Positions 551-39,002 are shown, numbered from the stretch's first letter. The stretch is DNA of 64,000 nucleotides from a virus (IMGVR_UViG_3300012663_000707:6897-70896), one strand, 5' to 3'. A program made the numbers and translations. The notes: generated from the letters alone by a model not told the origin.

Positions 551-1024
551 TTACTTCAATGATTTTTCAGTTAATACAATAAACCGCCAACCGCGGTTTG
601 AAGCATAAGCCTTTGCATATCCATATTTATCTCGGTTTCTAACATACTGTTCTGCAAGATATTTATAAGATTCCAATGCCTTCTTTGAATTTTTCATTGG
701 AGGTACTGGTTTCTTAATCTGTGCTTCTGGTTTTATTTCAACTAGAAACTCTTCAACTCCATCTTCAGTTTTAGTTTTCATATAGAAGTCTGGATAATAA
801 GTATGTTCCTTTTGATCTATTGAAGAGATGTATTTAACTTGAACTGGTTCACTAGCCCATGCAACAACTTTTTCTTTAGTGTCACACATAATCATAAACT
901 TACGTTCCCATGAACTTCTATAAATGATAGGTGTTGTACCTATGTACTTCTCTGGATTCTTAGGATTATAATAGCCTTGAATAAATCCACTTTTTGTAGT
1001 AGGTTTAACCTTCTTTATAGACAT
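551..1024 (-). CDS. PD-(D/E)XK-type nuclease-like protein (TnsA/restriction-endonuclease fold candidate)
   Basis: 157 aa; motif YYPDFY...VEIKP fits a PD-x(n)-E-x-K catalytic signature. Tightly packed in the operon with the upstream gene. Confidence 0.4.
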   Translation of the reverse strand: MSIKKVKPTTKSGFIQGYYNPKNPEKYIGTTPIIYRSSWERKFMIMCDTKEKVVAWASEPVQVKYISSIDQKEHTYYPDFYMKTKTEDGVEEFLVEIKPEAQIKKPVPPMKNSKKALESYKYLAEQYVRNRDKYGYAKAYASNRGWRFIVLTEKSLK

Positions 1025-3777: not shown

Positions 3778-5082
3778 TTAACTAAATGTTAATGAAATTG
3801 GTTGACCAGAAACAAATGATGCTGCTGATGTTACTGTTTGTGTAGCTTGTCCAGTTTGGATAAAAATGAATTCATTTTCAGTATCGACAAGGAATACACC
3901 AGGCGATGTACTCGTATATGTTACAGCATTTGCACCTTGAGTTATAGTTATTGTACCACCATTAGTCGACAATGCTGTAAACTGAGTTGTATAATCTACA
4001 CCAGTACTATCACTTAAATTAAGATAAATTTCATTAGCACCACCTACTTTATTTGGATTAAATGTTTCAGTAACTACATTTTGATTATCTCTGATCAAGA
4101 ATACTGCGTTACCTTGTTGAATTGGTGGCGCTGCATTTAATGCACCTTCATCACTATAGAAGTACCAAGAACCTGATCCTGTTCCACTTGTACCTGAAGT
4201 TCCACTTGTACCTGAAGTTCCACTTGTACCTGAAGTACCATTTCCAGCACCGCTACCAACTATAACATTAATTGAATCTGCATTAGCACCTGTACCCCAT
4301 GTATAAGTATAAGTTCCATCTACAAAACCTACACCTGCTAAAGTTTGATTTCCAAATGTTTGAGTACTTGTAATTTGATCTCCGGTAGTATAACCTACAG
4401 GAACTACTAAATGATGTGGTGGTGCTCCTTGGTAGATAACACCTAATATATCACCACTACTTGAAGTTGAACCAAATCCATTCATTCCTGTTCCAAAATT
4501 AGAAGGAACTGATGTGAATCCCGAATACTCATCATAATATGCTGGAGTTGAACCCATTGCCCACGTTGCAGTATTAATTCCCATACCACCACCACCGAAT
4601 GGCCCGTTATTAGTAGCAACTAGAGTTAAATCATTAATATTAAGTGTACCAGTAGTTGTCATAACAATATCAGATCCAACTTGATCGATAGTTATTGTTA
4701 ATCCACTAGTAGGCGGTGTACCTGAATCTAAACCAAAAGAAGTCCAGAAACCTGCATTGATAAGTGCATTTTTTGCTACTGTTGTATCCGCTGTTGTATA
4801 TGTAGCGTTTAGAAGTTTATTTGCTAAAGTAATAAACGAAGCATCTGTTTTAGCTGGAGATCTCCAAAACCCAACATATGCTGGTTGTCCATCTGCACCC
4901 ATTTGAGGTTGACTAGAAGATCGAGCAACAACATATCCGTTGTCTTCGTCTGGTCCATTCCACCATTTTAAGTTAGTAGCTTCAAAACCACCGGTAGGAT
5001 AACCTACCGCTAGATTTGTAAATTGTTCGGTACCTGCTATATTAGGTCCTAAATTTTTTGTAAAAGGTCTGGCAGTTGCCAT
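3778..5082 (-). CDS. Gly/Thr/Ser-rich repeat protein, fibre-like
   Basis: 434 aa, very Gly/Thr/Ser rich, with a (SGT)n stretch GNGTSGTSGTSGTSGTSGTSGTGSGS encoded by a perfect 18-bp tandem repeat. Confidence 0.55.
   Translation of the reverse strand: MATARPFTKNLGPNIAGTEQFTNLAVGYPTGGFEATNLKWWNGPDEDNGYVVARSSSQPQMGADGQPAYVGFWRSPAKTDASFITLANKLLNATYTTADTTVAKNALINAGFWTSFGLDSGTPPTSGLTITIDQVGSDIVMTTTGTLNINDLTLVATNNGPFGGGGMGINTATWAMGSTPAYYDEYSGFTSVPSNFGTGMNGFGSTSSSGDILGVIYQGAPPHHLVVPVGYTTGDQITSTQTFGNQTLAGVGFVDGTYTYTWGTGANADSINVIVGSGAGNGTSGTSGTSGTSGTSGTSGTGSGSWYFYSDEGALNAAPPIQQGNAVFLIRDNQNVVTETFNPNKVGGANEIYLNLSDSTGVDYTTQFTALSTNGGTITITQGANAVTYTSTSPGVFLVDTENEFIFIQTGQATQTVTSAASFVSGQPISLTFS
4180..4233. repeat. 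perfect 18-bp tandem repeat x3 (gttccacttgtacctgaa) inside the fibre-like gene
   Basis: Seen directly in the sequence; encodes the (SGT) repeats. Confidence 0.85.
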
Positions 5083-13042: not shown

Positions 13043-14251
13043 TTAAAAAAGTGCTGATGCGTAAATAAGATTAGTGTCTAATGTTTGAAGACCAATTGCT
13101 GAAAGAACTCTATTCAAAGGATCGATCATTGATTTCTCGAATTGAATGTCATAATCTACAGGTGGTGCAAATTCATAAGGATGTTCGTTAGGTAGATATG
13201 CATACATCTCTGATATTGGAGACTTGCAATGATAGATCTTTAACTTTTCACCGTTATTAATTACCTTATATTTGGTCTTGTATTTTGTGTTGTTATTCAA
13301 CAAGTAATTGTAGTAACCTGCTGCTTTTACGTTTGCTGGACATTTAAGTCCAATTTGAAGTTCGATCTGATCATCCACAATATACTTATCAATGTTGTTT
13401 GTTCTCTTATTAAAAGAGATGTCATCGATATTTGCCATGTGGAATTCTTTCTTAGTCTCTTTCATGAAGACAACCAACTTCTCTAAATCTGTTGCTGTTG
13501 GTTTAAAGCCGCTTGTAAAAATAAGCTTAAGTGCAGCTACAAGTTTCTCACGAACAAACTTTGGTGTTGAAGATTGAATGGTATCATATCCGATTGTCTT
13601 AACCTTCTTTAAAGGTGGATGACGGTCTGTTGTTTCAAGTTTGTCATCCCATGCAATATTTTGGATATACTTTTTCTTTGCAAGCCAGATACCGTTATAT
13701 GCAATAGTCTCAAGTTCAAATACCAAGAAGTTGTCTGTGTTTCTTTTGTCAGCATAACGCTCCATGGATTTAACAATGTATTCCTTTAGTCTAAAGTGAT
13801 ACAAAGCTAAGATGAATACATCAATGCTCATCTTCTTCTCTTCGTCTAGCCAAACAATTGATTCATACATATCTTGAAACTGAACGTAACAAGAATCTGT
13901 GTCAATGTAAATTACCGCAGGCTTTTCTACTTTACCTTTAACTTTAAGTCCAAACTGTTTATGTACAAGTTCGTCTTTATGCCAAAAGTCATTTACATAT
14001 TTGTTTAAGACTGCTTCGGAATAAAGGATTGCATTCTTACCTTGCTTGGTAATAGATTCTGCAATATTAATGTTAAAGAAGTGGAACCATTTATTACCGA
14101 AAGCTCCGTAGATTGAATTTAGAGTCAGTTTAACTGCTTGTTCATACGCAGTGTACTTAGCAGAAAGCTGCTCATAGTGTTCTATGAGCAGCTCCGCTTC
14201 TTCTTTTGAAAGTTGATCGACTGGTTTATGTTCTAACTCTGTAATATTCAT
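13043..14251 (-). CDS. family-B DNA polymerase, C-terminal fragment (motif B to thumb)
   Basis: Motif B KLTLNSIYGAFGN (KxxxNSxYG) and motif C IYIDTDSCYV (YxDTDS). Begins immediately downstream of the clamp-like gene. Confidence 0.8.
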   Translation of the reverse strand: MNITELEHKPVDQLSKEEAELLIEHYEQLSAKYTAYEQAVKLTLNSIYGAFGNKWFHFFNINIAESITKQGKNAILYSEAVLNKYVNDFWHKDELVHKQFGLKVKGKVEKPAVIYIDTDSCYVQFQDMYESIVWLDEEKKMSIDVFILALYHFRLKEYIVKSMERYADKRNTDNFLVFELETIAYNGIWLAKKKYIQNIAWDDKLETTDRHPPLKKVKTIGYDTIQSSTPKFVREKLVAALKLIFTSGFKPTATDLEKLVVFMKETKKEFHMANIDDISFNKRTNNIDKYIVDDQIELQIGLKCPANVKAAGYYNYLLNNNTKYKTKYKVINNGEKLKIYHCKSPISEMYAYLPNEHPYEFAPPVDYDIQFEKSMIDPLNRVLSAIGLQTLDTNLIYASALF

Positions 14252-15038: not shown

Positions 15039-15974
15039 TTAATGTTTCACTGTGAATTCTTCTTTAACAGCATTGGCAGCTTCTAGGAAATCTAATTGAC
15101 TTACTAGTTCCATACCGATTGCTGCTTGTGCTTCAATTGTAGATCCTGCGATATGAGGAGTTACGATAATTCTTGGATTGTTTAATAGTCTTTCGTCTGG
15201 TGTTGGTTCACCTACAAAAGTATCTAAACATGCTCCAGCAATTGTGTTAGTTCTGATTGCATCTATCAAATCTTGCTCATTTACACAACCACCTCTAGAA
15301 CAGTTGATGATAATTGCGTTATTTTTCATTTTAACAATATCATTTGAGTTCAATACTTCGGCTTTACCAGAGATATGAATTGTTATGAAATCAGATTCTG
15401 CTAAAAGTTGTTCCTTTGAGACAAAAATACTGTCATCAATTGATGAAATATATGGATCGTGGATTAATACTCGCATTCCATTTGCAGATGCAAGTTTAGT
15501 TACTTCTTTTCCAATGTTACCATATCCGATAACTCCAAGTGTTTTACCGTATACTTGAGTAGAACATTCTAGATCTTTTTTCAATTCTTTGAAGTTCTCA
15601 GTGGATAAAGTAGTTGTTGCTGTATGGATATGTCTAGAGCTTGTATAAATATAACCGATTACAAGTTCTGCAACTGAACGAGAACTAGCTTTTGGCGTAT
15701 TGTAAACGTTTCTTCCAAGTTCTTTTGCTGCATCTAGGTCTATATTATCTAGACCAACTCCAGCTCTACCAATAAAGATTAGTCCTGGGCAAGCTTCCAT
15801 AAGTTCTCTAGTAACTTTAGTTGCTGAACGTACCAATAGACATTCTATATTTTTAAGGTTAATAAATGTTGCTAATTCTTCTGGATTTATTTTACCAGTG
15901 AAAACAGTATGACCTGCTTTTGTAAAGGCTTTAATGGCTTCTGTATCAAGACCATCATTCGCTAAAATGTACAT
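15039..15974 (-). CDS. D-isomer-specific 2-hydroxyacid dehydrogenase family (SerA/phosphoglycerate dehydrogenase-like)
   Basis: NAD-binding GVIGYGNIGKEV...D, catalytic region NCSRGG, and HIAGST; 311 aa. Confidence 0.8.
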   Translation of the reverse strand: MYILANDGLDTEAIKAFTKAGHTVFTGKINPEELATFINLKNIECLLVRSATKVTRELMEACPGLIFIGRAGVGLDNIDLDAAKELGRNVYNTPKASSRSVAELVIGYIYTSSRHIHTATTTLSTENFKELKKDLECSTQVYGKTLGVIGYGNIGKEVTKLASANGMRVLIHDPYISSIDDSIFVSKEQLLAESDFITIHISGKAEVLNSNDIVKMKNNAIIINCSRGGCVNEQDLIDAIRTNTIAGACLDTFVGEPTPDERLLNNPRIIVTPHIAGSTIEAQAAIGMELVSQLDFLEAANAVKEEFTVKH

Positions 15975-19260: not shown

Positions 19261-19344
19261 TAACCTCGATCGAGCAATTCAATAAAAATACTAGCAGCGC
19301 TGCTTGTATTCTATATATCAACGTCTCGATCGAAATTGAGGTTA
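19261..19344 (-). promoter_or_regulatory. structured intergenic element: nested palindromes between the polymerase N-fragment and nrdB
   Basis: taacctcgatcgag (19261-19274) pairs with ctcgatcgaaattgaggtta (19325-19344). A perfect 12-nt palindrome agcagcgctgct sits at the centre (19294-19305). Confidence 0.35.
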
Positions 19345-20745
19345 TGATCTGAATTTTTTCTTTAATTCATCTGCTTTTGTGTAGTAAGAATAAGATGTTT
19401 TCTTGTAATCTTTACGTTGAGCATATAGGTCACTTAAGATTAATTTTAACATTGAATCTTCTTTCTTATATACTACGCCATTTTCACAAACAATAATACT
19501 GTCATCTTTTCTTCTGGCTTCGATCTCTCTTTCTGGAATGATCTCAACATATGAATCGGGCGAGATATTAAATTGTCTCATGATCGAAGGATATAGAGAT
19601 GCAAAGTCAAACGCAGATACTCCAGAGTAATAACCGACAATTGGTTCTTTTACAAAGGCACCTTCATATTTGGTTTCTTTCTTACTATCTTCTTTATCAA
19701 ATTCAACTGCAATCTTCATATTAGAATCTACTAATTTTCTAGCAATTAATGATTCTGTTACTGCCACTGGAGATGCTGCTTTATATAGAGGCATTTTAGT
19801 GATCGTAGCTAATGTAAGTAGTACTTCCATTGATCTTAGTTTACGGTCAATATAGTAAACCAACACGGAATCGACTACGTTATAATATACAAATTTTGTA
19901 AAGTTATCACGATATAGATCTTGTAGAGATCCAGTATATTTGATCTTGCTTACATCCAATACTTGACCAGATACAAAGTCTAATGAGCTGGATTCTTTAA
20001 CAGCAACACTACGGTCATATTTGTCATAAAGTTGCATGTAATCTAGGATTCCCATATGTAATGGTCTACTGTCTGCTTTATCTAAAGCTCCAGTGATTGC
20101 AACTTCAGTAAGATCGATTTGTAGTCTTTTACATCTATTTACAATATACTGCCAGTCATAGTTGATGAAATTCCAACCAGTCATCATTGGAAACTTAGGT
20201 AAGAACTTATGCAAGAATGTATACAACATATTGTACTCATCCTTAAATTTGTAATACGTAAATGTCCAATCTTGATCTAGGTCTTTGAAGTGTGCGTTTG
20301 TATCATCTTCGATCTTTTTAATATCTGCAGCAGATAGATCTTCTAGTCCAAGTACAATTGCTTTACGTTCTGGTGTGATAATTGAGAAGGTTAAAATCCT
20401 ACTCTTAGCTTCTTCTGGCTTTGGAAAACCATCTACGATTTCTGTCTCAATATCGACATAATACGTTCTAGGCATATTGAACTCATAGATCTCATTACGA
20501 TCTTCTTCAGGCAATGAATCCATAAAATACAATAGACTGAACTTGTTAAAAGATCTAGCTCTATTTTTCTTAATGGATCGACCATCCCAGTTTTTAAAAC
20601 GTTGGTCTTTATACTTGTCATTATCTTCTGCAATTACCCAATTTTGGAATTCTTTTACTGGGTATCTTTTGAAGGCAACTTTACCTTCACGATCGTAATA
20701 AGAAACGATCAGTTCTTTTTCGGTTTGTTCAATGTCTAATAGCAT
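19342..20745 (-). CDS. family-B DNA polymerase, N-terminal fragment (3'-5' exonuclease domain through motif A)
   Basis: Exo I YYVDIETEI, an Exo II-like YNVVDS block, and polymerase motif A FDFASLYPSI. Ends in a stop after motif A; motif B resumes in 13043..14251. Confidence 0.8.
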   Translation of the reverse strand: MLLDIEQTEKELIVSYYDREGKVAFKRYPVKEFQNWVIAEDNDKYKDQRFKNWDGRSIKKNRARSFNKFSLLYFMDSLPEEDRNEIYEFNMPRTYYVDIETEIVDGFPKPEEAKSRILTFSIITPERKAIVLGLEDLSAADIKKIEDDTNAHFKDLDQDWTFTYYKFKDEYNMLYTFLHKFLPKFPMMTGWNFINYDWQYIVNRCKRLQIDLTEVAITGALDKADSRPLHMGILDYMQLYDKYDRSVAVKESSSLDFVSGQVLDVSKIKYTGSLQDLYRDNFTKFVYYNVVDSVLVYYIDRKLRSMEVLLTLATITKMPLYKAASPVAVTESLIARKLVDSNMKIAVEFDKEDSKKETKYEGAFVKEPIVGYYSGVSAFDFASLYPSIMRQFNISPDSYVEIIPEREIEARRKDDSIIVCENGVVYKKEDSMLKLILSDLYAQRKDYKKTSYSYYTKADELKKKFRS

Positions 20746-25138: not shown

Positions 25139-25215
25139 GTTACAGTGTAAATATAATAAAAAAGCCTGACATAAAAAAATGTCAGGCCAATTATTTTGCC
25201 AAAAGTTATTAACAA
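25139..25215 (-). repeat. conserved intergenic cassette copy E1 (stop-proximal TTGTTAATAACTTTT box, hairpin terminator, ATTATATTTACAC box)
   Basis: Minus strand TTGTTAATAACTTTTGGCAAAATAATTG-GCCTGACATTTTTTTATGTCAGGC-TTTTTTATTATATTTACACTGTAAC. Near-identical to 32847-32923. Confidence 0.8.
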
Positions 25216-25698
25216 TTACTTTACGTTCTTAAGAACTGTTCTAAGTCTACCGATTGCTGCATCTAATGAACTGTAGATTGGAACGTTGTATCTGCTACAA
25301 ATAACATCTACGTTTCCTTTTCTCCAGAATTCATCCGGACAACAAACGATCATCTTACCGGAAGCAGCGTACAATCCAAGTTCTGCTAAACTAATTGGAC
25401 TCTTAGTTCCTGGTGAGAAGTACATAAAGATGATGTCGCAATTATCTAACATATCCATTTCCCAATTTACTTGTTCGTTGAATTGTGGGTTAGCTTCTGT
25501 TTGTTCCCAACTTGAATCCCAATCATCACGTCTAGGATTTAAAAAGACTATATCTTCACGATCCTGAAATTGATTAGGAATTACCTCTTGCCAATTTTCA
25601 GCAGCTCCCATTTCGATAGATCCTGCTAAGAATATAGTAAGTTGTTTTTGGTCTCCGTATGGGAGTGGTATTTGATTTGGTGCTTTAACTATGTTCAT
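25216..25698 (-). CDS. nucleoside 2-deoxyribosyltransferase-like (NDT/DNPH1 fold) protein
   Basis: IFLAGSIEMG N-terminal motif and SPISLAELGLYAASGKMIV resemble the NDT-family Rossmann-like signature. Confidence 0.45.
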   Translation of the reverse strand: MNIVKAPNQIPLPYGDQKQLTIFLAGSIEMGAAENWQEVIPNQFQDREDIVFLNPRRDDWDSSWEQTEANPQFNEQVNWEMDMLDNCDIIFMYFSPGTKSPISLAELGLYAASGKMIVCCPDEFWRKGNVDVICSRYNVPIYSSLDAAIGRLRTVLKNVK

Positions 25699-25701
25699 AA
25701 T

Positions 25702-25971
25702 TTATTTATTGATTTGATTATGTATCGGGTTTTTACAATTACCTTTATGAGATCCCCATTGAGTTTGTCCAATTCCACCTACAATATATTCACAACCTTC
25801 AAGAGTATAAACTCTATAATTTTGGTCAAAATACTTTGAACTATTGTCTAGTTCCATTTTATGCGGATTTGATTGAGTCGAAACTTGTACGTTGCCTTCG
25901 CAACTTGTAACCATAAAGGCTACAAGTGCTGCAAAGATCAATAAGAATAGAGTTATATTTTTTCTGTTCAT
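25702..25971 (-). CDS. small secreted lipoprotein (89 aa)
   Basis: Signal peptide with lipobox LVAFMVTSC; cysteine-containing mature part. Confidence 0.5.
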   Translation of the reverse strand: MNRKNITLFLLIFAALVAFMVTSCEGNVQVSTQSNPHKMELDNSSKYFDQNYRVYTLEGCEYIVGGIGQTQWGSHKGNCKNPIHNQINK

Positions 25972-27470
25972 TTAGCAGATTTTAAACGTTCTCTGATTTC
26001 AGTTAATGTTGTTTGGTTTTCAAAGAAACCATTTCTATAAATAGTCTGTAATTCACCTTTTGCCTCATCTTCCCATGAACATTGATCCAGTAAAATTAAT
26101 AATCCAGCGGAGTTATATACACTCAACAATCCAGTTGCTGATTTCTTTGTCCCATCATCTGTAATTGGGTCTTTAAAGATTTGTCTACCTTCGCCATTAA
26201 CATCAACATACGTTGCTTTCATTGCGAAACCAAATGTGTCTCTGGTATTGTATTGGTATGTGAATGAACCTACACCTAAAACGATGTTTGTACTTGCAAA
26301 TCCTTTTGCTTCTAAACGCTTACAGATTTCTTCAGCTCTTTCAATTGTAATTGAGTCTCCGTAGATTGCTCCGATATGAGAGTCAAGAACTTTGTAACCT
26401 TGTTCGTTGATAGTTCCTCCGAAAACATCCCAAAGTAATTCAATAACACCTTTCTTTTCAGGACTATCAGAATTAGTGATTACATTATCATCGCCAAATG
26501 TTGCTTTATTTGATTGAATCCATGATGAATTATCATAACCACAAATAATATCGACCGGATCACCAGAGTCAGGTCTAATAACTACTTTACCATCACGAGC
26601 TAAAATCTCTTCTTTCAAAGTAACTACGTGTTCGGTACAAACTTTCCATAAGTCCCAAGTATCTGATACGATTGAAAGAATTCCTGTTGGATATGTTTCC
26701 ATCAAGTTTCTAAATGTTCCAACCTCATCTTCTTTAGATCCAGCGCACATAACTGAATGTTCAGTTGCATTCACACTTCCACAAACAGTATCTGTTGCAC
26801 CATAAAATTTACGTGCTCCATAAATTGTTGGTAAACTATCTGAACCTAAGAAACTTGTTAAGTGACCAAGACCTGAAGAGATTACTGCCTCCACTGAATC
26901 CATACCTCTCATTGAGAAATCATGTCCTTGCCAATCAATAAACCATCCGCGCTCAGCATCAGTTTTTTCTTGCCATTTGGTCAATACCTTACGGTAAGTA
27001 TGGGCAATAGTTGCAGAAGTCATTGGTTTCCATAACAAGTTTGAAAGGATAGTTTCCAAGTAATTTGTTACCCAATAGAAATCTGGATGTGTATTATAGA
27101 TTGTTAATACAGGAACTTTGATAGGAACTAATGTACCTTCTGGAAGAGCTTTAACCGCGATTGGCAAATAACCTAGATCATGTAGGGCTTCAAAGTGACT
27201 AACATCATAATCAGTTCCAAGGTACATTGATAACTCACGTTTCATTTCTCCACAAACCTCATCTTTTGGTTTGCTAAAGAAATCCTTCTCAAAAGATTCG
27301 TGAATTTGCTTCATTACCATTTGTTGTCCAAACGATACTAATTGGTCGCAACCCTTTGGTGCATACTTGTTACTTCTTGGTGTGAAGTTTGAATAAACCA
27401 ACGTAGTTCCTTTTGGATATTGTTGGTGGTGTCCTGTTTTGTACCCGTCTGTTAAAAATAATGGATTCAT
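25968..27470 (-). CDS. nadV: nicotinamide phosphoribosyltransferase family (NadV/NAMPT-like; could equally be the Namat type)
   Basis: N-terminus MNPLFLTDGYKTGHHQQYP is typical of NAMPT; 500 aa. Confidence 0.85.
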   Translation of the reverse strand: MNPLFLTDGYKTGHHQQYPKGTTLVYSNFTPRSNKYAPKGCDQLVSFGQQMVMKQIHESFEKDFFSKPKDEVCGEMKRELSMYLGTDYDVSHFEALHDLGYLPIAVKALPEGTLVPIKVPVLTIYNTHPDFYWVTNYLETILSNLLWKPMTSATIAHTYRKVLTKWQEKTDAERGWFIDWQGHDFSMRGMDSVEAVISSGLGHLTSFLGSDSLPTIYGARKFYGATDTVCGSVNATEHSVMCAGSKEDEVGTFRNLMETYPTGILSIVSDTWDLWKVCTEHVVTLKEEILARDGKVVIRPDSGDPVDIICGYDNSSWIQSNKATFGDDNVITNSDSPEKKGVIELLWDVFGGTINEQGYKVLDSHIGAIYGDSITIERAEEICKRLEAKGFASTNIVLGVGSFTYQYNTRDTFGFAMKATYVDVNGEGRQIFKDPITDDGTKKSATGLLSVYNSAGLLILLDQCSWEDEAKGELQTIYRNGFFENQTTLTEIRERLKSAK

Positions 27471-27490
27471 ATGTTTATTGTTTTAATTTT

Positions 27491-27565
27491 GATATGTAAA
27501 TATAATCAATTTATTTTGATCCCGAAAACATTTTTCAATTTATTTTCAAAAAGTTATTAACAATC
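27491..27565 (-). repeat. intergenic cassette copy E5 (hairpin replaced by a duplicated AAAATAAATTGA segment)
   Basis: Shares the TTGTTAATAACTTTTTGAAAATAA and ATTATATTTACA boxes with E1-E4. Confidence 0.6.
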
Positions 27566-28015
27566 TACAAGATTCGCCAAAACACTTTTTACCATGCCAA
27601 TCTCTGCACGACCTTGGTATCTTTTATTAAATTCACCAATAGTTTTACCTTGCAAAGCCTGTGGATTTGTAATAGTAACAGACAAATCCTGTAGAATTTC
27701 CTTTAAAGCCAATACAATCTCATCAGCTGTCATTTGAGCTGGCATATATCTTCTAAGAACTGCACTTTCATCTGCCTCTTTTTTCGCCAATTCTGGTCGA
27801 TTTGCAACATCATACATTTTTTGGGCATCCTCTCTGGTCTTGATCGCTTTATTAACGATTTTAATAATCTCAGCATCGGTTGCAACCCAAGTTCCATTGT
27901 TTTTTTCAGCAACCTGGATTGCTGCTTTAATACTACCTAATGCATCCTTTGCATTTGTGTCTTTTGCTTTGTATGCAGCAATATAATCTGCATCTATTCT
28001 TTCTTTAATTGTCAT
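27557..28015 (-). CDS. GatB/YqeY domain protein
   Basis: 152 aa helical protein whose pattern (IKERIDADYIAAYKAKD...LGSIKAAIQ...) is typical of YqeY-like proteins. Confidence 0.65.
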   Translation of the reverse strand: MTIKERIDADYIAAYKAKDTNAKDALGSIKAAIQVAEKNNGTWVATDAEIIKIVNKAIKTREDAQKMYDVANRPELAKKEADESAVLRRYMPAQMTADEIVLALKEILQDLSVTITNPQALQGKTIGEFNKRYQGRAEIGMVKSVLANLVDC

Positions 28016-28021
28016 CTTTCT

Positions 28022-28237
28022 TTATTTTATGTTTTCTAATGGGTATGCGTTTAAAATGAAATTTTTATCATTAAGATGGTCCCAAGTACCTTCAGGTAAT
28101 TCATATTCTGCTTGAGAATCTACAGCCTTTAATGCTTGTTCAACATGGTACCTTGCAAATAATACACCAAATTCTTTCCAGTCGAATGCGTATTTACCGT
28201 TTTCACTGATATGGTCTAAAAAATCTTCTGCTGTCAT
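28022..28237 (-). CDS. hypothetical small protein (71 aa)
   Basis: ORF in the operon. Confidence 0.35.
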   Translation of the reverse strand: MTAEDFLDHISENGKYAFDWKEFGVLFARYHVEQALKAVDSQAEYELPEGTWDHLNDKNFILNAYPLENIK

Positions 28238-28243
28238 CTTTCT

Positions 28244-28450
28244 TTAGTTTTTTCTGATTCCTGTTACCATAACGTATTTAAACGTTCCATCCTTTTTAAA
28301 CATATGCTGAATAAATGTTACATCATACGTTTTAAATCCATTGTCAAATTCCATTGTTATTTGTTCATCGATTAATGGTTTTTCAACTTCACAAATAAAA
28401 TCACTTTCACAGACTCCACCATTCATTAAAACAAATCTACACCTTGTCAT
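28244..28450 (-). CDS. hypothetical small protein (68 aa)
   Basis: ORF in the operon, overlapping the Thg1-like gene end. Confidence 0.35.
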   Translation of the reverse strand: MTRCRFVLMNGGVCESDFICEVEKPLIDEQITMEFDNGFKTYDVTFIQHMFKKDGTFKYVMVTGIRKN

Positions 28451-29378
28451 AATCTATATTTTTAGATGGGTTTAATAGTCCTTTAATAAAAAATCTGTCT
28501 TGTGTAAATGTTGGAGTTTCAATAACTTTCCATTTGTTTCGCTTTACAATTTGATTTGGATCGATCATATGAGTTTTACCATCATTAACAAATTTTGTTG
28601 TAGTTGATCCAATCGTAACAACTTCTACTTTACCAATCACAGCACCTCTTTTCTTACGAAAATCATAATCATTCCAGTTGATTCCCTTTTGAAAAATCAT
28701 CTCTTGCATCTGATCTGTCTTTACACCATTTAATTCTTTTGGACTATAAAGACTTTGTGCAACTGAAGAGATACTGTTTCGTACAGCGTCTTGTTGTCTC
28801 CAAATAAAATAGTTTTCAACTTCATCAATGAATGGAATTTGAAAAGCTCTGGCATCAAATTGAGCCATTTTGAATTTTTGAATTTCATTCTCAGTTAATA
28901 AGTTTTCAACATAGTCTCCCATGATGTCATTACATGCTCTTATTAATCTTAAACGATTAAATTCAGAAGTTGCCATAGAGGCAGCAACACTTACCATTTT
29001 CTGTAAGTTATTGTCAAACCATGCATGAGTTCCTAATTCATCAAAGTCTGTTAGGACTAAACTAATCTCATCTGATTGTACGTAACCAAACTTGGCACCT
29101 TGGATATTTTTACATAGATATGCAGTAGTTGCATTCATGTCTTCAATAAGTCCTTGGTCAAATGGTCGTTCTAATCCTCGAGTGTAAGTGTGGAATGCTT
29201 TTCCGTCAATACGGATAATTGTGAATGTTCTCCTTGGGAGCTTGATTCTAGTTCTATCTTCGTAGAACTCTTTCATACGGTCGCCTAATGCGTCTTTCAT
29301 AATATATGTTATTGTGCAACCTTCGTTAGTTGGATGCTGGTTATGTTCTTTATACTTAGAACATTTGTTTTGTTTCAA
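28437..29378 (-). CDS. Thg1-like protein (tRNA-His guanylyltransferase / 3'-5' nucleotidyltransferase family)
   Basis: IIRIDGKAFHTYTRGLERPFD, GYVQSDEISLVL and the downstream block match Thg1 motifs VVRIDGKKFH..., ..GESDEYSF... Probable true start is the internal MKDALG at about 29300, which clears the adjacent tRNA-like gene. Confidence 0.75.
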   Translation of the reverse strand: MKQNKCSKYKEHNQHPTNEGCTITYIMKDALGDRMKEFYEDRTRIKLPRRTFTIIRIDGKAFHTYTRGLERPFDQGLIEDMNATTAYLCKNIQGAKFGYVQSDEISLVLTDFDELGTHAWFDNNLQKMVSVAASMATSEFNRLRLIRACNDIMGDYVENLLTENEIQKFKMAQFDARAFQIPFIDEVENYFIWRQQDAVRNSISSVAQSLYSPKELNGVKTDQMQEMIFQKGINWNDYDFRKKRGAVIGKVEVVTIGSTTTKFVNDGKTHMIDPNQIVKRNKWKVIETPTFTQDRFFIKGLLNPSKNIDYDKV

Positions 29379-29380
29379 AT

Positions 29381-29505
29381 TGTAGTCAGGACAGGATTCG
29401 AACCTGTGATAGTCTCCATCAGCACATTGATAAAGCAGAGACTCCGTAGCAGTTGGGGAACTTACTCAATGTTTCGGGGCGTGTTTCCATCTCGCCACCT
29501 GACTA
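29381..29505 (-). tRNA. tRNA-like gene, atypically long (about 125 nt)
   Basis: Minus strand has T-arm ACAGG-TTCGAAT-CCTGT, a 3' acceptor strand CCTGACT+A, and a perfectly complementary 5' end TAGTCAGG. The D-arm-like GGCG/CGCC is present. The body is too long for a canonical tRNA, suggesting an insertion or intron, or a tRNA-like stable RNA. Confidence 0.4.
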
Positions 29506-29661
29506 TATTGACTTTAAGAGCACGTTGTTCTTTGCATCTCTTTGATATTCTCCGCGGTTAGTCAAACCGGATATAAATTTGTTATATCAGCAGTCCCATG
29601 CAGGTAATCACCCTGCTTCTCATCATATTAGGCATACTATTCGGTGATGAACCGAACCGTG

Positions 29662-29741
29662 TCGTCAGGGCCGGACTCGAACCGGATAAGCAACCATTTA
29701 ACTGGATTCGGGGACCAATCCCTCATTACGCCCACCTGACT
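29662..29741 (-). tRNA. tRNA-like gene (80 nt) with GGTTCGAGTCC T-loop region
   Basis: Minus strand AGTCAGGTGGGCG...CCGGTTCGAGTCCGGCCCTGACGA. Six of seven acceptor pairs are Watson-Crick, and the 5' end is identical to that of the first tRNA-like gene. The anticodon arm could not be assigned by eye. Confidence 0.45.
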
Positions 29742-29870
29742 ATTTTAGCTGTTTATTCCGCTTCTTTTTTTTCAGTTACTTCAACTTCAATTTCCTTTAA
29801 AACATAAGTAGATCCTAAGATTACATCATGTTCAAGTACTACTACTTCAATTGTTTCTTTCTTGCTCATA

Positions 29871-30785
29871 TTAAAATACATTAAATTGTGTTACTAAATT
29901 AGGTTTTGTTATACTTGATCCTTTACTATTTGTAGTAGAAGCTTTATCTCCGGATACTTTAGATTCAATATCTTCATAAGAATTAGTGCAGAATATGCCA
30001 TCAAATAATTCATTAAGATCATGGAATCCACTACTAAAAATACCGTGAGTGACCACCAAATAAATTTTAGCAGTTGGGCGTCCTTCTTTAATCGCCTTTG
30101 CCAATTCAACGAATGTTCTACCTCCGTCGCAAATATCATCCACGATTACATATTTAATATCATCATGTTGATTTAATACTGGGATCTCAGTTCTAAGAAT
30201 ATTTCCGGTTCTCATATCCCTTACTTTATTTGCAGTAATGATATTGTTAATGCCGAATTTCTTAGCAACATCAAAGATCTTTTTGTAGGCTCCAGCATCT
30301 GGACTTACTAAGCAGATGCGTGATTGAGCATCGTTTTTGTTGTCTATAGCGGTAAGAGCATATTTGACTAATAGATGATTGTCCACTTTGTCATAGTTGT
30401 TTAGGCATGCCTCTAATACATCTGAGTGCGGATCTAGAGTTAAGACTGTACTTAAGTTTAATGAATTGATGATTGGGCAAATAACTTGCTTTAAGTAGTT
30501 AACTCCGCCATCAACAAATTTACGGTCTGAACGAGCTCCTAAGAAATAAGGAACATAAAGTGCAATCTCTTTGTTTGGTACGATGTTACGTATCGCTTGC
30601 ACTGCGCAGATAAGTAATTCTACGTCTCCGAATGAATTCAAACGAGTGCTTAATTTAACTGCATCGTCATTATTCATCAAAATACTCCAACTTGTAAGAT
30701 CTACAGTTTGTTGTCCGTCAGGAAACTTACTGATCTTATACTTGATTTGAGATTTTTCTTGATCGATTAAATTTAATGTTATCAT
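29871..30785 (-). CDS. prs: ribose-phosphate pyrophosphokinase family (Prs; possibly ADP-ribose pyrophosphokinase Adps-type)
   Basis: PRPP-binding loop YVIVDDICDGGRTF; 304 aa; a two-domain PRTase-like layout. Confidence 0.8.
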   Translation of the reverse strand: MITLNLIDQEKSQIKYKISKFPDGQQTVDLTSWSILMNNDDAVKLSTRLNSFGDVELLICAVQAIRNIVPNKEIALYVPYFLGARSDRKFVDGGVNYLKQVICPIINSLNLSTVLTLDPHSDVLEACLNNYDKVDNHLLVKYALTAIDNKNDAQSRICLVSPDAGAYKKIFDVAKKFGINNIITANKVRDMRTGNILRTEIPVLNQHDDIKYVIVDDICDGGRTFVELAKAIKEGRPTAKIYLVVTHGIFSSGFHDLNELFDGIFCTNSYEDIESKVSGDKASTTNSKGSSITKPNLVTQFNVF

Positions 30786-30800: not shown

Positions 30801-30875
30801 TATAGTGTAAATATAATAAAAAAGATTGACAATTAAAAATTTATTTGCAATTATTTTGCAAAAGTTATTAACAAT
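30801..30875 (-). repeat. intergenic cassette copy E2 (hairpin degenerate)
   Basis: TTGTTAATAACTTTTGCAAAATAATTG ... TTTTTTATTATATTTACAC boxes conserved. Confidence 0.7.
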
Positions 30876-31473
30876 TTTCTAAGCTATCTGGGTAATACAA
30901 GAGAGTTGGATTCTTCTTCTGAATGTCAACCTCCGGGTATTGTTTCTTGAATGCCAAAACATCGAAGCGATCTGTAATCAAATGGAAACCATTTTTAGTA
31001 GGAATGACAAATTTAGTCTTTGGTCCTTCTGGCTTACATTTGTTAATAGTAACTTGAATGTTACGTAACTCTTGCATGTCTTTCGTATCAATATCGACGA
31101 TCCAAAGTTTCTCTTTAGTCTTAATTTGCCCAACAACAGAGTCGAATAAACCTTTTTGGTTATGGTTACCATCTTGGATCCTCTGTGCTAATTGAACCAT
31201 CATATTTAAACTGACATCAAAGTGGTTTTGTTTCTGTACATGGATGTAAGCTCTGGCTTTAAACATTTCACAAAGCTGCATGATCTCATCATATCTTCTT
31301 TCTAAGTGATCAATGCTTTCAATACAATAAGTACTGATTGTTCTTACCGATTGATGGTTGTCTCTTTCTCCTTCTGGTTGATCCTTCTTACGCTTAAAAA
31401 CATAAAGCATATAGAAGTCTCCTTTGTTTTCAAAGTTTAAGAGATGTTTGATTATTTCTAGATTGTTTATCAT
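30868..31473 (-). CDS. hypothetical protein (201 aa)
   Basis: ORF flanked by cassettes E2 and E3. Confidence 0.5.
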   Translation of the reverse strand: MINNLEIIKHLLNFENKGDFYMLYVFKRKKDQPEGERDNHQSVRTISTYCIESIDHLERRYDEIMQLCEMFKARAYIHVQKQNHFDVSLNMMVQLAQRIQDGNHNQKGLFDSVVGQIKTKEKLWIVDIDTKDMQELRNIQVTINKCKPEGPKTKFVIPTKNGFHLITDRFDVLAFKKQYPEVDIQKKNPTLLYYPDSLENC

Positions 31474-31485
31474 CTTGTTCGTTTG

Positions 31486-31565
31486 TTACAGTACAAATAT
31501 AATAAAAAAGCCTGAGACTAAAAAATCTCAGGCAAATTATTTTGTAAAAGTTATTAACAATTTTA
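31486..31565 (-). repeat. intergenic cassette copy E3 (hairpin carries compensatory substitutions)
   Basis: Hairpin GCCTGAGATTTTTTAGTCTCAGGC differs from E1/E4 GCCTGACAT...ATGTCAGGC by paired changes that preserve the stem. Confidence 0.8.
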
Positions 31566-35755: not shown

Positions 35756-35763
35756 TATTTATA
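35756..35763 (-). promoter_or_regulatory. TATAAATA late-promoter-like motif upstream of 34100..35746
   Basis: Plus tatttata at 35756-35763; minus strand reads TATATAAATAAAAAGTAAAATG. Confidence 0.3.
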
Positions 35764-37597
35764 TATTTTTAAGAAATTCATTGAATGTTAGGAAGTTACT
35801 CTCGTTAGTAGCCATTGACTGCTGAAGTTTATCCTTAAGCTCAGTATACATACCATGAATTGCTCTAGGTGTTAATTTTTTAAATGTCTTTTCGTCATCT
35901 TCTAACATTGCATTTCTAACTTGAGTAGCTGAAACATCATTGTCACCTCTTGTAATTTCAAATAAACCAAAGTCTGGTCTTACATTTAAATCATTTCTAT
36001 ACTCTTCTTTGTCTACTTGATATGAATAAGTCTTCATTCTATCAGTACCGGTACCCCATAAAACTGGTTCGTACTTGGGTCTAAGTTCATTAAACATCAA
36101 ATCAATACCAGCGCTTGGCAAGATAAATACATCTTGAATCGGGTAAGTACTCTTTAACGCTTCAAGCATTCTTACTTGTGTATCTTCATCATAAGGTCTA
36201 GAGAAAGCATCTTCTTTCTTTTTAGTCTTAGATTTAATTAAGAAGATTACAACTGGATAGCCATTTTGTTTCTGCATGTTCTCAATAACTTTGGCATGTC
36301 CTAATGTAAATGGTTGGAATCTACCAACAAACATATTTACCGGCATTTTACCATGGTCAGTTGTATTAACTTTTAATGCTTCCAAGATTGGACTAGTTTG
36401 CACTGATAAGTTTTGGTGTTTTAAATAAGATTGGAAATTCAATACGTCTCCTTCTTTTATTGTACCCATAACGATATTTTCTATTTCGTTCACAATATCA
36501 TTAATTTGAGCCATTAGATCAGCATTGATAATCGTGGTTTCTTTAGTTCTAATTTTTCTAAAAGAACCTAAGATAATTTTAAAAAGTTCAGCAACAACTT
36601 TATTTTGTACTAATGCAACCGTCTTTTCATTTTGAATATACTTAGTGTTCAATTCAAAACCTGGAATTGTTGCAAAGTCTGCTGAGTCGAAAGAAGCACC
36701 AATATACTTGGTAGCATTATCTTCCATATATGCATTAAAGATGATCGACATTAATTCTAAATATCTTTCATCTGTTTTTTCTGCTTTTAGTTCTACCTTA
36801 CTTAGATCATATTGAGCCATATACTCTACTAGATCTAAGATTGAGATTTGATACATGTCCGATGGAGCTCTATCCACTGGTGCTTTTTTATCAAATCTTT
36901 CTAGTTTAAAACTTTTAACGGCTTTACCATCAAAGAAATTTAAGATTAGGCAGTCGATTGGTTTATCAAGATCTCTATTTAACGCAGTGTTGTTTAGACC
37001 TTTATTAAAAATATTGTAAACATATCTTGTAAATGATCGATCATTAAAGTAAGATGTAAAATCGCCATCAGACATACTTAAGAGATCCGTTAACGCATCC
37101 TTTTGGTCCGACTGTAAGATTCCATTGTAAATAACTTGAGGTCGCTGTACTTCAAGATAATCAGCCCATTCGTTTAAAACTTTAGGATCTCTAATTACCT
37201 TTTTAACTTGAGTTAGATCTACAGGATTCAATACTTGAATATGAGTTAAAACCAAATGATTCTTTGGCAACATATCATATTCGATGTCTACTGTCTTTGG
37301 ATCTATCATATAGTCAAATCCAAATTTCCAGTCTACTGGCATCTTTTCTCTAACGTCGGCAGATAATGTGCCGAAATAATTAATAGCATTCTCGTAATAT
37401 TTTACGATCGTGCGATCAACTTTATCCATTTCACTTTTTTGACCACTTTTAAAATAGTCAAAGCCTTCCGATGTTTTTTTAACATGGAAAGAAGATGCTT
37501 GTATCTTTTCAGTAACAACGCATGGAACCGTTAATAAGTCCGTGAACTCATTAGTATTAGCCGATTCAAAATATGTTTTTAAGTTTTGTAGAGCCAT
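35759..37597 (-). CDS. large protein with C-terminal NMNAT-type (cytidylyltransferase-like) nucleotidyltransferase domain
   Basis: Class-I nucleotidyltransferase motifs GRFQPFTLGH (HxGH) and VSATQVRN (ISSTxxR) in the last 200 aa. The roughly 400-aa N-terminal part is unassigned. The C-terminus ends ...NFLTFNEFLKNI. Confidence 0.55.
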   Translation of the reverse strand: MALQNLKTYFESANTNEFTDLLTVPCVVTEKIQASSFHVKKTSEGFDYFKSGQKSEMDKVDRTIVKYYENAINYFGTLSADVREKMPVDWKFGFDYMIDPKTVDIEYDMLPKNHLVLTHIQVLNPVDLTQVKKVIRDPKVLNEWADYLEVQRPQVIYNGILQSDQKDALTDLLSMSDGDFTSYFNDRSFTRYVYNIFNKGLNNTALNRDLDKPIDCLILNFFDGKAVKSFKLERFDKKAPVDRAPSDMYQISILDLVEYMAQYDLSKVELKAEKTDERYLELMSIIFNAYMEDNATKYIGASFDSADFATIPGFELNTKYIQNEKTVALVQNKVVAELFKIILGSFRKIRTKETTIINADLMAQINDIVNEIENIVMGTIKEGDVLNFQSYLKHQNLSVQTSPILEALKVNTTDHGKMPVNMFVGRFQPFTLGHAKVIENMQKQNGYPVVIFLIKSKTKKKEDAFSRPYDEDTQVRMLEALKSTYPIQDVFILPSAGIDLMFNELRPKYEPVLWGTGTDRMKTYSYQVDKEEYRNDLNVRPDFGLFEITRGDNDVSATQVRNAMLEDDEKTFKKLTPRAIHGMYTELKDKLQQSMATNESNFLTFNEFLKNI

Positions 37598-37601
37598 TCT
37601 T

Positions 37602-39002
37602 TTATCTACCGTATTTAATGATACCCATTAGTTGGTTAATTGCAGCAAAGGTACCTGTTAATTTGTAAGTATGTCCTTTGTATCTGAATACTAGGCCTTC
37701 TGTCGGAATGATGGATTGTACACCACCGATTCTATCCAATCTAGCAAGTTCAGATTCTACTTTATCTATCTGTTTTTGGTCACCGCCTTTTCTAACGTTT
37801 TCAGCTGCATTTTTAATCTCGTTATGCAACCTTTGCATTTCTTTATCTGGTGACAAAGCTAAAAAGTTAGAAGCATTTTTAAGGATGATCGAACCTAGTT
37901 CTAAGAAAATATCTTCAAAAGGTCTAATGTTTTCTTTATACTTCTTTTTTGCATCTTCTTTATCAAATTGCTTGATTGCAGCTTCTTGTTCTTTGCTTAA
38001 AGACTTTCCTAAATCTCTTAGATTCAAAGTCTTCTTGTCATCGTAAGCCCATCTTAACATTAAACCTTCTTTAATGTCTTGTGGCATTTCTCCAAAGATA
38101 GCATCGATTTGTTCTCTCCACCACATTTCGTGGTATTTAGAAACTGGATCTGAATCCATTAAACCATATTGGTCTCTTAATGCTTCGATCTTTTTGATAA
38201 ATTTATCTTTGTTAGTATCAAAGTCGATGTCTTTTCTTAGTTGAATGATTTGTGGGGGAATTATTGTAAATTTAGAACCTACGTTTGCATTCAATTCTTT
38301 TAATACTTTAGCGATCTCTGACGCAGCTTTAGGCTGTTCATTAATGATATTACCTTCGCCATCAGTTTCTTTAATACCATGGAACTGGATCACATCTACA
38401 TCATAATGAATTACATTAGGATTAAGTGAATAGATCAACTCCATGTTCATAAAGTTCTTTCCATTTTGGAAAGTGCTATCTTGTACACCTTTTGGAAGTC
38501 TAATTAATAGACTTGCCAAATCCGCTGCTGCGAATTGAAAAGTATCTTGTACTAATTTGCTAGGGTGTCCTTCAAACTTAGATTGGAAATCAGCAAGAGA
38601 CATCGGTAATTTCATATCACCTTTATTTCTTGCAAATTTAACTTCACCATCTTGGATAGTAGCAAATACATTTTGACCATCTGTTTTTTCAGTCGGTTGC
38701 TCTTCAAAATTAAGTTCACCTTGTAAACCTGATTCTGCCATAGCTTTTAAATCGCCGAAAGTCAAATCCTTATTATCAAATGGGTGTGACATGTGTCCTG
38801 CTGCACCACCTTCTAATACAAGTTGGTTAAACATTTTAGCTTCATATGTTTGTACAAAGCCTTCTGTTAAAAATTGATCTAAGTTAAGTAATTTCATTTC
38901 TTTATAATCTATTAAAGACCCAGTTGCCCAGGTCTTTTGTTTTGTTTGTTTTATTAAGCTTCTTGTGAAATCATTGCTTGAATAACATTGCTTGAGATCC
39001 AA
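37602..39002 (-). CDS. hypothetical protein with KxDG nucleotidyltransferase-like motif (ligase-like candidate), CTS-like MKLLNLDQFLTEG near the N-terminus
   Basis: EKTDGQNVFATIQDGEVKF resembles ligase/capping motif I (KxDG); other ligase motifs were not confidently located. Confidence 0.3.
   Translation of the reverse strand: MDLKQCYSSNDFTRSLIKQTKQKTWATGSLIDYKEMKLLNLDQFLTEGFVQTYEAKMFNQLVLEGGAAGHMSHPFDNKDLTFGDLKAMAESGLQGELNFEEQPTEKTDGQNVFATIQDGEVKFARNKGDMKLPMSLADFQSKFEGHPSKLVQDTFQFAAADLASLLIRLPKGVQDSTFQNGKNFMNMELIYSLNPNVIHYDVDVIQFHGIKETDGEGNIINEQPKAASEIAKVLKELNANVGSKFTIIPPQIIQLRKDIDFDTNKDKFIKKIEALRDQYGLMDSDPVSKYHEMWWREQIDAIFGEMPQDIKEGLMLRWAYDDKKTLNLRDLGKSLSKEQEAAIKQFDKEDAKKKYKENIRPFEDIFLELGSIILKNASNFLALSPDKEMQRLHNEIKNAAENVRKGGDQKQIDKVESELARLDRIGGVQSIIPTEGLVFRYKGHTYKLTGTFAAINQLMGIIKYGR

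Follow-up and report, generated by a model that had tools for sequence, protein, structure and literature searches.

A probable NARP1-type NAD+ reconstitution gene pair in an accessory island of an uncultured T4-like aquatic phage

The 64,000-nucleotide viral DNA stretch IMGVR_UViG_3300012663_000707:6897-70896 (the window, by which the whole of this stretch is meant) contains a T4-like replication and nucleotide-metabolism module (gp15-like, gp46/47-like, DnaB-like, UvsX-like, a split family B DNA polymerase (PolB), NrdAB and UvsW), in which two minus-strand genes encode a protein similar to phosphoribosyl pyrophosphate (PRPP) synthetase, Prs, and a NAMPT-like protein. We consider it highly probable that these are ADP-ribose pyrophosphate synthetase (Adps) and Namat (a nicotinamide ADP-ribose transferase), respectively, i.e. 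the NARP1 pair, that they belong to one accessory minus-strand unit, and that the cassette intervening between them is separate from NAD+ synthesis. NARP1 is an already known two-enzyme pathway, and what is new here is its occurrence in an uncultured T4-like aquatic phage lineage. The assignment in this phage is based on the families and clades to which the two proteins belong, on the retention of their catalytic and specificity residues and on the gene arrangement, and both enzymatic reactions, as well as an anti-defence role, would be expected by analogy with the published biochemistry of homologues. An earlier note on this DNA had recognized a NAD+ salvage or reconstitution gene set and pointed to the right literature, and the clades and motifs of Adps and Namat bear it out in this respect; the three open reading frames (ORFs) it had listed, the third being that of a 612-residue protein, are all present at exactly the coordinates given and, like every gene of the region, on the minus strand (table 1). 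Its proposal that the phage could use either or both of the known routes, namely NARP1, based on ADP-ribose (ADPR), and NARP2, based on nicotinamide mononucleotide (NMN), has to be narrowed to NARP1 alone on the basis of clade, clamp motif, score profile and loop motifs.

By analogy with the characterized systems, the pathway would start from the products of host defence, with SIR2, TIR and SEFIR effectors (Thoeris, DSR1/2, SIR2-HerA and others) cleaving NAD+ to ADPR and nicotinamide. Adps would then, at the expense of ATP, pyrophosphorylate ADPR at its terminal ribose, yielding ADPR-PP, from which, in the reaction catalysed by Namat, nicotinamide would displace pyrophosphate so that NAD+ would be directly regenerated. 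An adenine-binding selectivity clamp on Namat would favour ADPR-PP over PRPP, and the pathway would be idle unless ADPR accumulates.

The 304-residue Prs-like protein is predicted to be Adps and not a canonical Prs. Its previous description as Prs-like is borne out by matches to Pfam Pribosyltran and Pribosyl_synth, which are however weak, and the protein falls below the cutoff of all 11 NCBIfam Prs models, the best match being to TIGR01251 (ribP_PPkin) with 85.8 bits versus the 113 of the cutoff. With the latter model, three reference Adps proteins (those of SPbetaL1, FADO and JohannJBalmer/Bas62) obtain 96-118 bits and E. coli Prs 422.7 bits, and the overall NCBIfam profile of the window protein resembles that of the three reference proteins; the score with phrog_619 is 230 bits. 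A neighbour-joining tree (22 sequences, 269 columns) was calculated with a set of Prs sequences, from plasmid and chromid records, that included five class I proteins, a divergent one from Burkholderia and a class III-like one from Sphingobium. The bootstrap value for the split of phage Adps-type proteins from all Prs is 100%. Within the Adps group the window protein has a nested position, between the proteins of Lbo-JY46, which it adjoins, and of ICP1 and Bas62, which are near, on one side and the validated SPbetaL1 and FADO Adps on the other. Clustering with canonical PRPP synthetases, which the earlier note had named as the outcome contrary to its reading, was not observed in this tree, the protein being outside all Prs.

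The alignment revealed the motifs FPDGQ, RSDRK and DPHS (DLHA in Prs), the catalytic Lys within NKVRD, which is equivalent to K162 of SPbetaL1 Adps and to K197 of Bacillus subtilis Prs, and a shortened N-terminus. The ribose-5-phosphate loop of Prs, DDxIDTxGT, is changed to VDDICDGGRTF, the same as found in the Adps of JohannJBalmer (Bas62), a phage in which the NARP1 genes are annotated as those described for Bas63. SPbetaL1 Adps has been found to have ADPR-pyrophosphorylating, and not Prs, activity (Osterman et al., bioRxiv 10.1101/2024.02.11.579819). A tblastn search of phages with the window Adps returned 1,477 records, and a NAMPT-like gene is located nearby in all the hits that were inspected (JohannJBalmer, ICP1, phage K, Wigglewiggle, PN09, EcoM2, Lbo-JY46, FADO, SPbetaL1 and AS-sw).

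The 500-residue NAMPT-like protein is, in turn, predicted to be Namat and not NadV/Nampt. The previous label, NAMPT/NadV-like, was correct for the family (Pfam NAPRTase, 3e-39, plus NAMPT_N; NCBIfam NF006629, 557.7 bits with a cutoff of 405) and not for the type, as judged from the Namat clade and the clamp motif. Along the whole of its length the protein shares 53% identity with the crystallized SPbetaL1 Namat, which is also its best match in the PDB (9w5x/9w5w, 540 bits), human and Xanthomonas Nampt scoring approximately 220 bits. Osterman et al. (10.1101/2024.02.11.579819) have reported that the NAMPT homologues of phages are mostly ADPR-transferases acting on nicotinamide, which use ADPR-PP and form a clade apart from the KVP40-type Nampt. 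In a neighbour-joining tree calculated from 14 sequences over 451 columns (the two characterized Namats of SPbetaL1 and FADO, eight others of the Namat type whose genes have an Adps-type gene in the vicinity, a single relative from the lineage and three Nampts of the NARP2 type, namely KVP40-like, P-KP2 and CcrKarma) Namat and Nampt are split with 100% bootstrap, with the window protein inside the Namat group. The phylogenetic placement that had been suggested as a check has thus been carried out for both proteins, and assigned the Prs-like one to the Adps clade and the NAMPT-like one to the Namat clade, each with 100% bootstrap.

Structures published in 2026 (PMC12774641) have defined the adenine-binding selectivity clamp, with a SCH signature GSX-phi-X-phi-X-phi-TRD, X being aromatic. 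The corresponding motif of the window protein, GSFTYQYNTRD, is the same as in SPbetaL1 Namat and fits the signature, whereas KVP40-like/NARP2-type proteins have GGGLLQ at this position. The SCL loop, PRSNKYAPKGCD, is of the long Namat type, with K aligned to R40 and followed by Y at the predicted stacking position, which corresponds to the published Lys/Tyr variant. The equivalents of D13, Y15, F189, R192, D215, R306, D308 and R399/D400, and the catalytic His, are all conserved, so that all the catalytic and NAD-contact residues listed for SPbetaL1 are kept in the alignment; an 18-residue loop insertion is present at approximately 312-330 relative to SPbetaL1. With the Prs-like protein identified as a probable Adps and the NAMPT-like protein as a probable Namat, the pair is assigned to NARP1 and not to NARP2.

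A classical salvage by the window genes would resemble NARP2 of KVP40 (Nampt and Nmnat/NatV) in that a NAMPT-family gene and a nucleotidyltransferase domain of the HIGH superfamily, here in the 612-residue protein, are found in one genome. It is, however, very improbable. The NAMPT-family protein of the window is of the Namat type, lying outside the KVP40-type Nampt clade (100% bootstrap) and carrying the ADPR-PP clamp; the Prs-like protein is outside the Prs clade, and its homologue SPbetaL1 Adps is without Prs activity; and the 612-residue protein, which scores below NMNAT cutoffs and has TxGH in place of HxGH, is encoded by a core replication-module gene that is also found without the island (see below). 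Further differences from KVP40 are the fusion of the nucleotidyltransferase to a ligase-like domain, the lack of a Nudix domain, the fact that no NMNAT model was passed and the absence of linkage to the island.

The NARP1 systems of SPbetaL1 and FADO (Bacillus) and of Bas63 (E. coli) (10.1101/2024.02.11.579819; PMC12774641) share with that of the window the clades of both enzymes, the SCH clamp motif, the catalytic residues, the flexible-loop Lys of Adps and the altered ribose-phosphate loop, along with the location of Adps and Namat on the same strand and a few genes apart. Unlike in these systems, the window genes are split by 2.4 kb containing a Thg1-like gene, a YqeY gene, two small ORFs and two tRNA-like elements. 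Additional genes within or beside the Adps-Namat pair are also present in the NARP1-AP operon (10.64898/2026.01.28.702374), which encodes an extra Macro-domain phosphatase, Adpp, and in the DyoEdafos NARP1 locus (10.64898/2026.05.28.727677), with an extra RyDEP glycosidase, but the inserts of the window are tRNA-related (Thg1-like and YqeY). No Macro, RyR or Nudix domain was detected in the island ORFs and in most of the larger ORFs below 43.6 kb, the region 43578-64000 not having been scanned. The linkage criterion of Osterman et al. for NARP1 is a distance of no more than 10 genes between Adps and Namat, and the four ORFs and two RNA-like elements that separate them in the window, all on the same strand, are within this limit. 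Adps-Namat pairs interrupted by inserts are also found in PN09, AS-sw, Lbo-JY46 and contig L005.

The unit that contains the pair extends for approximately 6.3 kb on the minus strand between two strong terminator-like hairpins, with none comparable within it. It consists, in this order, of the genes for a 201-residue protein and Adps, the two tRNA-like elements, and the genes for the Thg1-like protein, the 68- and 71-residue proteins, YqeY, Namat, an 89-residue protein and a nucleoside 2-deoxyribosyltransferase-like (NDT-like) protein. The last of these genes also follows Namat in L005 (15229-15696), L029 and 11 related contigs, and it is a speculation that its product could be an analogue of an ADPR-signal glycosidase. 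The 201-residue protein was considered as a NARP1 accessory enzyme and rejected, since its conservation greatly exceeds that of Adps: its metagenomic homologues number more than 6600, the 120 best listed being 83-98% identical, and its conservation throughout the lineage indicates that it is not specific to NARP1.

Several points weigh against the assignment to NARP1. In this phage the pathway is a prediction from the genes, and the trees are small neighbour-joining ones (14 and 22 sequences), which do not extend to the whole of the dataset that has been published. With experimentally studied Adps proteins, that of the window shares no more than 26-38% identity. Adps and Namat are not adjacent, and their co-transcription is presumed because there is no terminator-like site between them. 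Finally, Namat homologues keep an in vitro activity converting PRPP to NMN (10.1101/2024.02.11.579819; PMC12774641), so that some NMN production by the window Namat would be possible.

The NARP1 unit is an accessory island within the replication module. In the relatives L027 and L028 only one ORF, of 53 residues, separates the DUF3008 and DUF6378 genes, and in the window the same interval measures approximately 7.7 kb and includes a Band_7 gene and the NARP1 unit. The absence of the island from close relatives and its location in a hypervariable region fit what is expected of counter-defence cargo. In a 234-kb relative, five unrelated small ORFs separate Adps from Namat, and in contigs of 1.6-2.8 kb an identical 304-residue Adps is followed by different genes, including HAD_SAK_2. 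In L002/L003 (1644-2738, compared with window 29379-29870), where the identical Adps is encoded, ORFs of 42 and 155 residues and HAD_SAK_2 replace the tRNA-like/Thg1 cassette, which points to a recombination hot spot directly 3' of Adps. The surrounding replication and nucleotide-metabolism module (NrdAB, PolB) would also suit genes that serve the synthesis of phage DNA by enlarging the pools of PRPP and of pyridine nucleotides, with no anti-defence role. This explanation is scarcely credible, however, in the face of the clade and motif evidence for Adps and Namat and of the accessory character of an island that is missing in close relatives and lies in a hypervariable region.

Studies of NARP1 have so far dealt with cultured phages of Bacillus, E. 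coli, Vibrio and mycobacteria, and the present assignment would add a T4-like aquatic lineage that is uncultured and very abundant, in which the pathway would be the cargo of a hypervariable accessory island and not core equipment. The abundance of the lineage is supported by hundreds of metagenomic homologues; a megablast search of the INPHARED phage collection with 13 kb gave no nucleotide-level match, and thus there is no close cultured relative in it. The criteria used here also provide a recipe for separating Adps from Prs and Namat from Nampt on the basis of sequence, where automatic annotation misnames Adps 'ribose-phosphate pyrophosphokinase' and Namat 'nicotinate phosphoribosyltransferase'. 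The split operon with a probably tRNA-directed cassette, and the conserved ligase/NadM-like fusion found nearby, add to the interest of the locus.

The Thg1-like protein of the cassette belongs to the tRNA-His guanylyltransferase/3'-5' polymerase family (PF04446 2e-28, 99.3 bits versus a cutoff of 29.2; phrog_4717 1e-84) and is 45% identical to Thg1 of the Bacillus phages FADO and Bc431v3. Its ORF reaches a TTG at 29378, gene callers start it at the ATG at 29300, and 287 residues are called on L029. Thg1 homologues were found in 77 viral contigs (L031-L107). In approximately 24 of these, Adps, Namat or both are encoded no more than 4 kb from Thg1, in several gene orders; the Thg1 of all the 24 NARP1-linked contigs shares 60% or more identity with the window Thg1. 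YqeY adjoins Thg1 in 12 of the 77. Pfam searches with the 71- and 68-residue ORFs gave no match. An independent case is that of Bacillus phage FADO (L011, 2103-4470 and 6692-7420), in which a Thg1-like gene is located 2.2 kb downstream of the NARP1 operon. That Thg1 recurs near NARP1 may be due to the sharing of accessory or counter-defence islands by the two, or else to a connection in function. We know of no link of the tRNA-related inserts, Thg1-like and YqeY, with ADPR. The cassette formed by the Thg1-like gene, the tRNA-like RNAs, the small ORFs and YqeY is most likely a tRNA-directed module that shares the island and does not contribute a step to NAD+ synthesis; a possible but improbable alternative is that it is a co-regulated counter-defence partner, with tRNA repair paired with NAD+ repair.

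The earlier note had described the region between the two NARP1 genes as a Thg1/tRNA insert, of which the Thg1 gene is confirmed and canonical tRNAs are not. ARAGORN with default settings found no tRNA in the whole window, Rfam gave no tRNA match at the gathering score, and lowering the ARAGORN thresholds or allowing introns led to implausible calls only. With both programs negative, the label 'tRNA genes' was rejected and replaced by 'tRNA-like elements'. Element A obtains 28.4 bits (E 0.0011) with the Rfam tRNA model RF00005, just short of the gathering score of 29. Element B was called neither by Rfam nor by ARAGORN, and its fold has no gain in stability over shuffled sequence (z +0.3). Homologues of element A are found upstream of Thg1 in L037 (approx. 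3810-3918), L039 (3682-3776) and L041 (662-756), those of L039 and L041 being labelled by ARAGORN as 'tRNA-???' with a 4-base anticodon. Members of this family, which lie immediately upstream of Thg1-like genes, have an invariant acceptor stem (AGUCAGG/CCUGACU) and an invariant T arm, the part in between being variable in both sequence and length (95-124 nucleotides). In the more distant L057, Thg1 is found within a true tRNA cluster, beside tRNA-His. The presence of element A homologues adjacent to Thg1, along with the L057 cluster, suggests that Thg1 may act on the elements as its substrates or that they derive from tRNAs by decay; they could also be Thg1/TLP decoys.

The 612-residue protein is a conserved member of the replication module that is related to NMNATs, and only its nucleotidyltransferase superfamily is established. 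The N-terminal domain (approx. residues 1-400) is Rnl2-like, with an invariant Lys31 in EKIQASSF, and the C-terminal one (approx. residues 415-600) is NadM-like and belongs to the HIGH superfamily (PF01467 CTP_transf_like, residues 422-562, 6e-10). It had been described earlier as carrying a C-terminal HxGH/ISSTxxR NMNAT-type domain; the superfamily is correct, but the motifs are GRFQPFTLGH, i.e. TxGH and not HxGH, and ISATQVR, and NMNAT models give 27-29 bits with cutoffs of 127-409. An AlphaFold2 model, built from 49 orthologues, has two domains and a mean pLDDT (predicted local distance difference test) of 77. A search of the PDB with the family profile retrieved NadM-type NMNATs only, at a marginal level (best E 4e-4), and in structure PPAT is almost as close as these. 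An exhaustive search with the C-terminal domain yielded 614 representatives, from stand-alone proteins of approximately 180 residues to a multidomain one of 1288, and when 50 representatives of the family were scanned with NMNAT models, the strongest match obtained, with E approximately 1e-10, was far below equivalog level.

A Foldseek search of BFVD with the model led to the 'cytitidyltransferase'/cytidyltransferase-like proteins of the T4-like cyanophages S-PM2 and S-RIM2, with a full-length match to a 591-residue S-PM2 protein, and to many Rnl2 proteins of phages and giant viruses. Like the cyanophage proteins, the 612-residue one is encoded in a T4-like replication module; it differs from them in sequence (12-26% identity) and in the domain extensions, the relatives ranging from 180 to 1288 residues. 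To our knowledge, the function of the cyanophage 'cytitidyltransferase' proteins is uncharacterized. A literature search found no description of a fusion of an RNA ligase with a cytidylyltransferase. Relatives of the 612-residue protein include P0121-P0240, and an orthologue (L027/L028:10001-11848) occupies the same position, in the order gp32, UvsW, two ORFs, the fusion gene and, after further genes, PolB, with no NARP1 island at the corresponding site. The 612-residue protein is thus not demonstrably a NMNAT and is not linked to Adps and Namat, and its proposed membership of the NAD+ gene set did not stand up: the failure to pass any NMNAT cutoff, the relationship with the 'cytitidyltransferase' family and the orthologue found without the island place it outside a dedicated NAD+ set and leave NARP2 unsupported. 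More generally, a 'NMNAT-like' domain in T4-like phages needs evidence before it is counted as NARP2.

These results also bear on the combination of both routes, in which NARP1 would be accompanied by conversion of NMN to NAD+ by the NadM-like domain. The NadM-like sequence and fold of the domain and the residual PRPP activity of Namat speak for it; NMN would come from this side activity, or from ligase or host turnover, and the second route would serve as a back-up against defences with products other than ADPR, such as aRES. As aRES is overcome by NARP2 and not by NARP1, a second route would be adaptive. With the NMNAT cutoffs not reached, we nevertheless regard the combination as distinctly improbable. 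Somewhat less so, and yet improbable, is that the 612-residue protein is a new bifunctional enzyme joining a Rnl2-like nick-sealing ligase with a working NMN adenylyltransferase, found here along with NARP1. If so, the lineage would have the final step of NAD+ synthesis, or a recycling of cofactors, built in at its replication fork, and the phage would be the first with both ADPR-based and NMN-based routes to NAD+. Osterman et al. (bioRxiv 10.1101/2024.02.11.579819) found no phage with both NARP1 and NARP2, and no exception to this result is established here.

Directly upstream of the fusion gene, a 466-residue protein is encoded, the motifs of which (table 1) are suggestive of another covalent nucleotidyltransferase. 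A second ligase had been suspected from EKTDGQN, but sequence searches of Pfam, PHROG and the PDB gave no match, and the protein has no similarity to the 612-residue one.

Table 1. Features of the NARP1 unit and of the fusion-gene region, in window coordinates.
Feature	Position	Strand	Description and basis
Terminator-like hairpin at the end of the unit, following the NDT-like gene	25163-25188	minus	10-bp stem followed by a T run
NDT-like protein	25216-25698	minus	PF15891, 2e-36
89-residue lipoprotein-like ORF	25702-25971	minus	downstream of Namat
Namat (predicted), second NARP1 enzyme	25968-27470	minus	500 residues; clade, clamp motif, identity to SPbetaL1
YqeY-like protein (GatB/YqeY domain)	27557-28015	minus	Pfam YqeY, 2e-28
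Small ORF, 71 residues	28022-28237	minus	called on L029
Small ORF, 68 residues	28244-28450	minus	called on L029; recurs in 6 related contigs
Thg1-like protein	28437-29300	minus	PF04446, phrog_4717
tRNA-like element A	29383-29506	minus	perfect 7-bp acceptor stem, canonical T arm, insertion of ~64 nucleotides in the anticodon region
tRNA-like element B	29658-29742	minus	5' start AGTCAGGTGG as in element A; T arm CCGGTTCGAGTCCGG; read from sequence and alignment to A
Adps (predicted), first NARP1 enzyme	29871-30785	minus	304 residues; clade, score profile, motifs
201-residue protein, first gene of the unit	30868-31473	minus	phrog_14949; motif pair WIVDIDTKD...TKNGFHLI
Terminator-like hairpin on the upstream side of the unit, following the Band_7 gene	31510-31533	minus	10-bp stem followed by a T run
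612-residue conserved fusion protein, not part of NARP1	35759-37597	minus	Rnl2-like ligase and NadM-like nucleotidyltransferase domains
466-residue protein	37602-39002	minus	GGAAGHMSHPFD motif and EKTDGQN (KxDG-like); 428-residue counterpart in L027

Elsewhere in the window, PolB is apparently split into two minus-strand genes, 19342-20745 for the exonuclease and N-terminal part and 13043-14251 for the C-terminal part, which are approximately 5 kb apart and are separated by NrdA, NrdB, a 247-residue ORF and a 2-hydroxyacid dehydrogenase. The latter (15039-15974, minus strand) matches the NAD-binding domain of the D-isomer-specific 2-hydroxyacid dehydrogenases in Pfam with 3e-44 and is a NAD(H)-dependent auxiliary enzyme. 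Beside structural and replication genes, a protein with a TnsA-like endonuclease N-terminal domain (551-1024, minus strand; Pfam 3.5e-18) is encoded, which may be a homing or mobile endonuclease.

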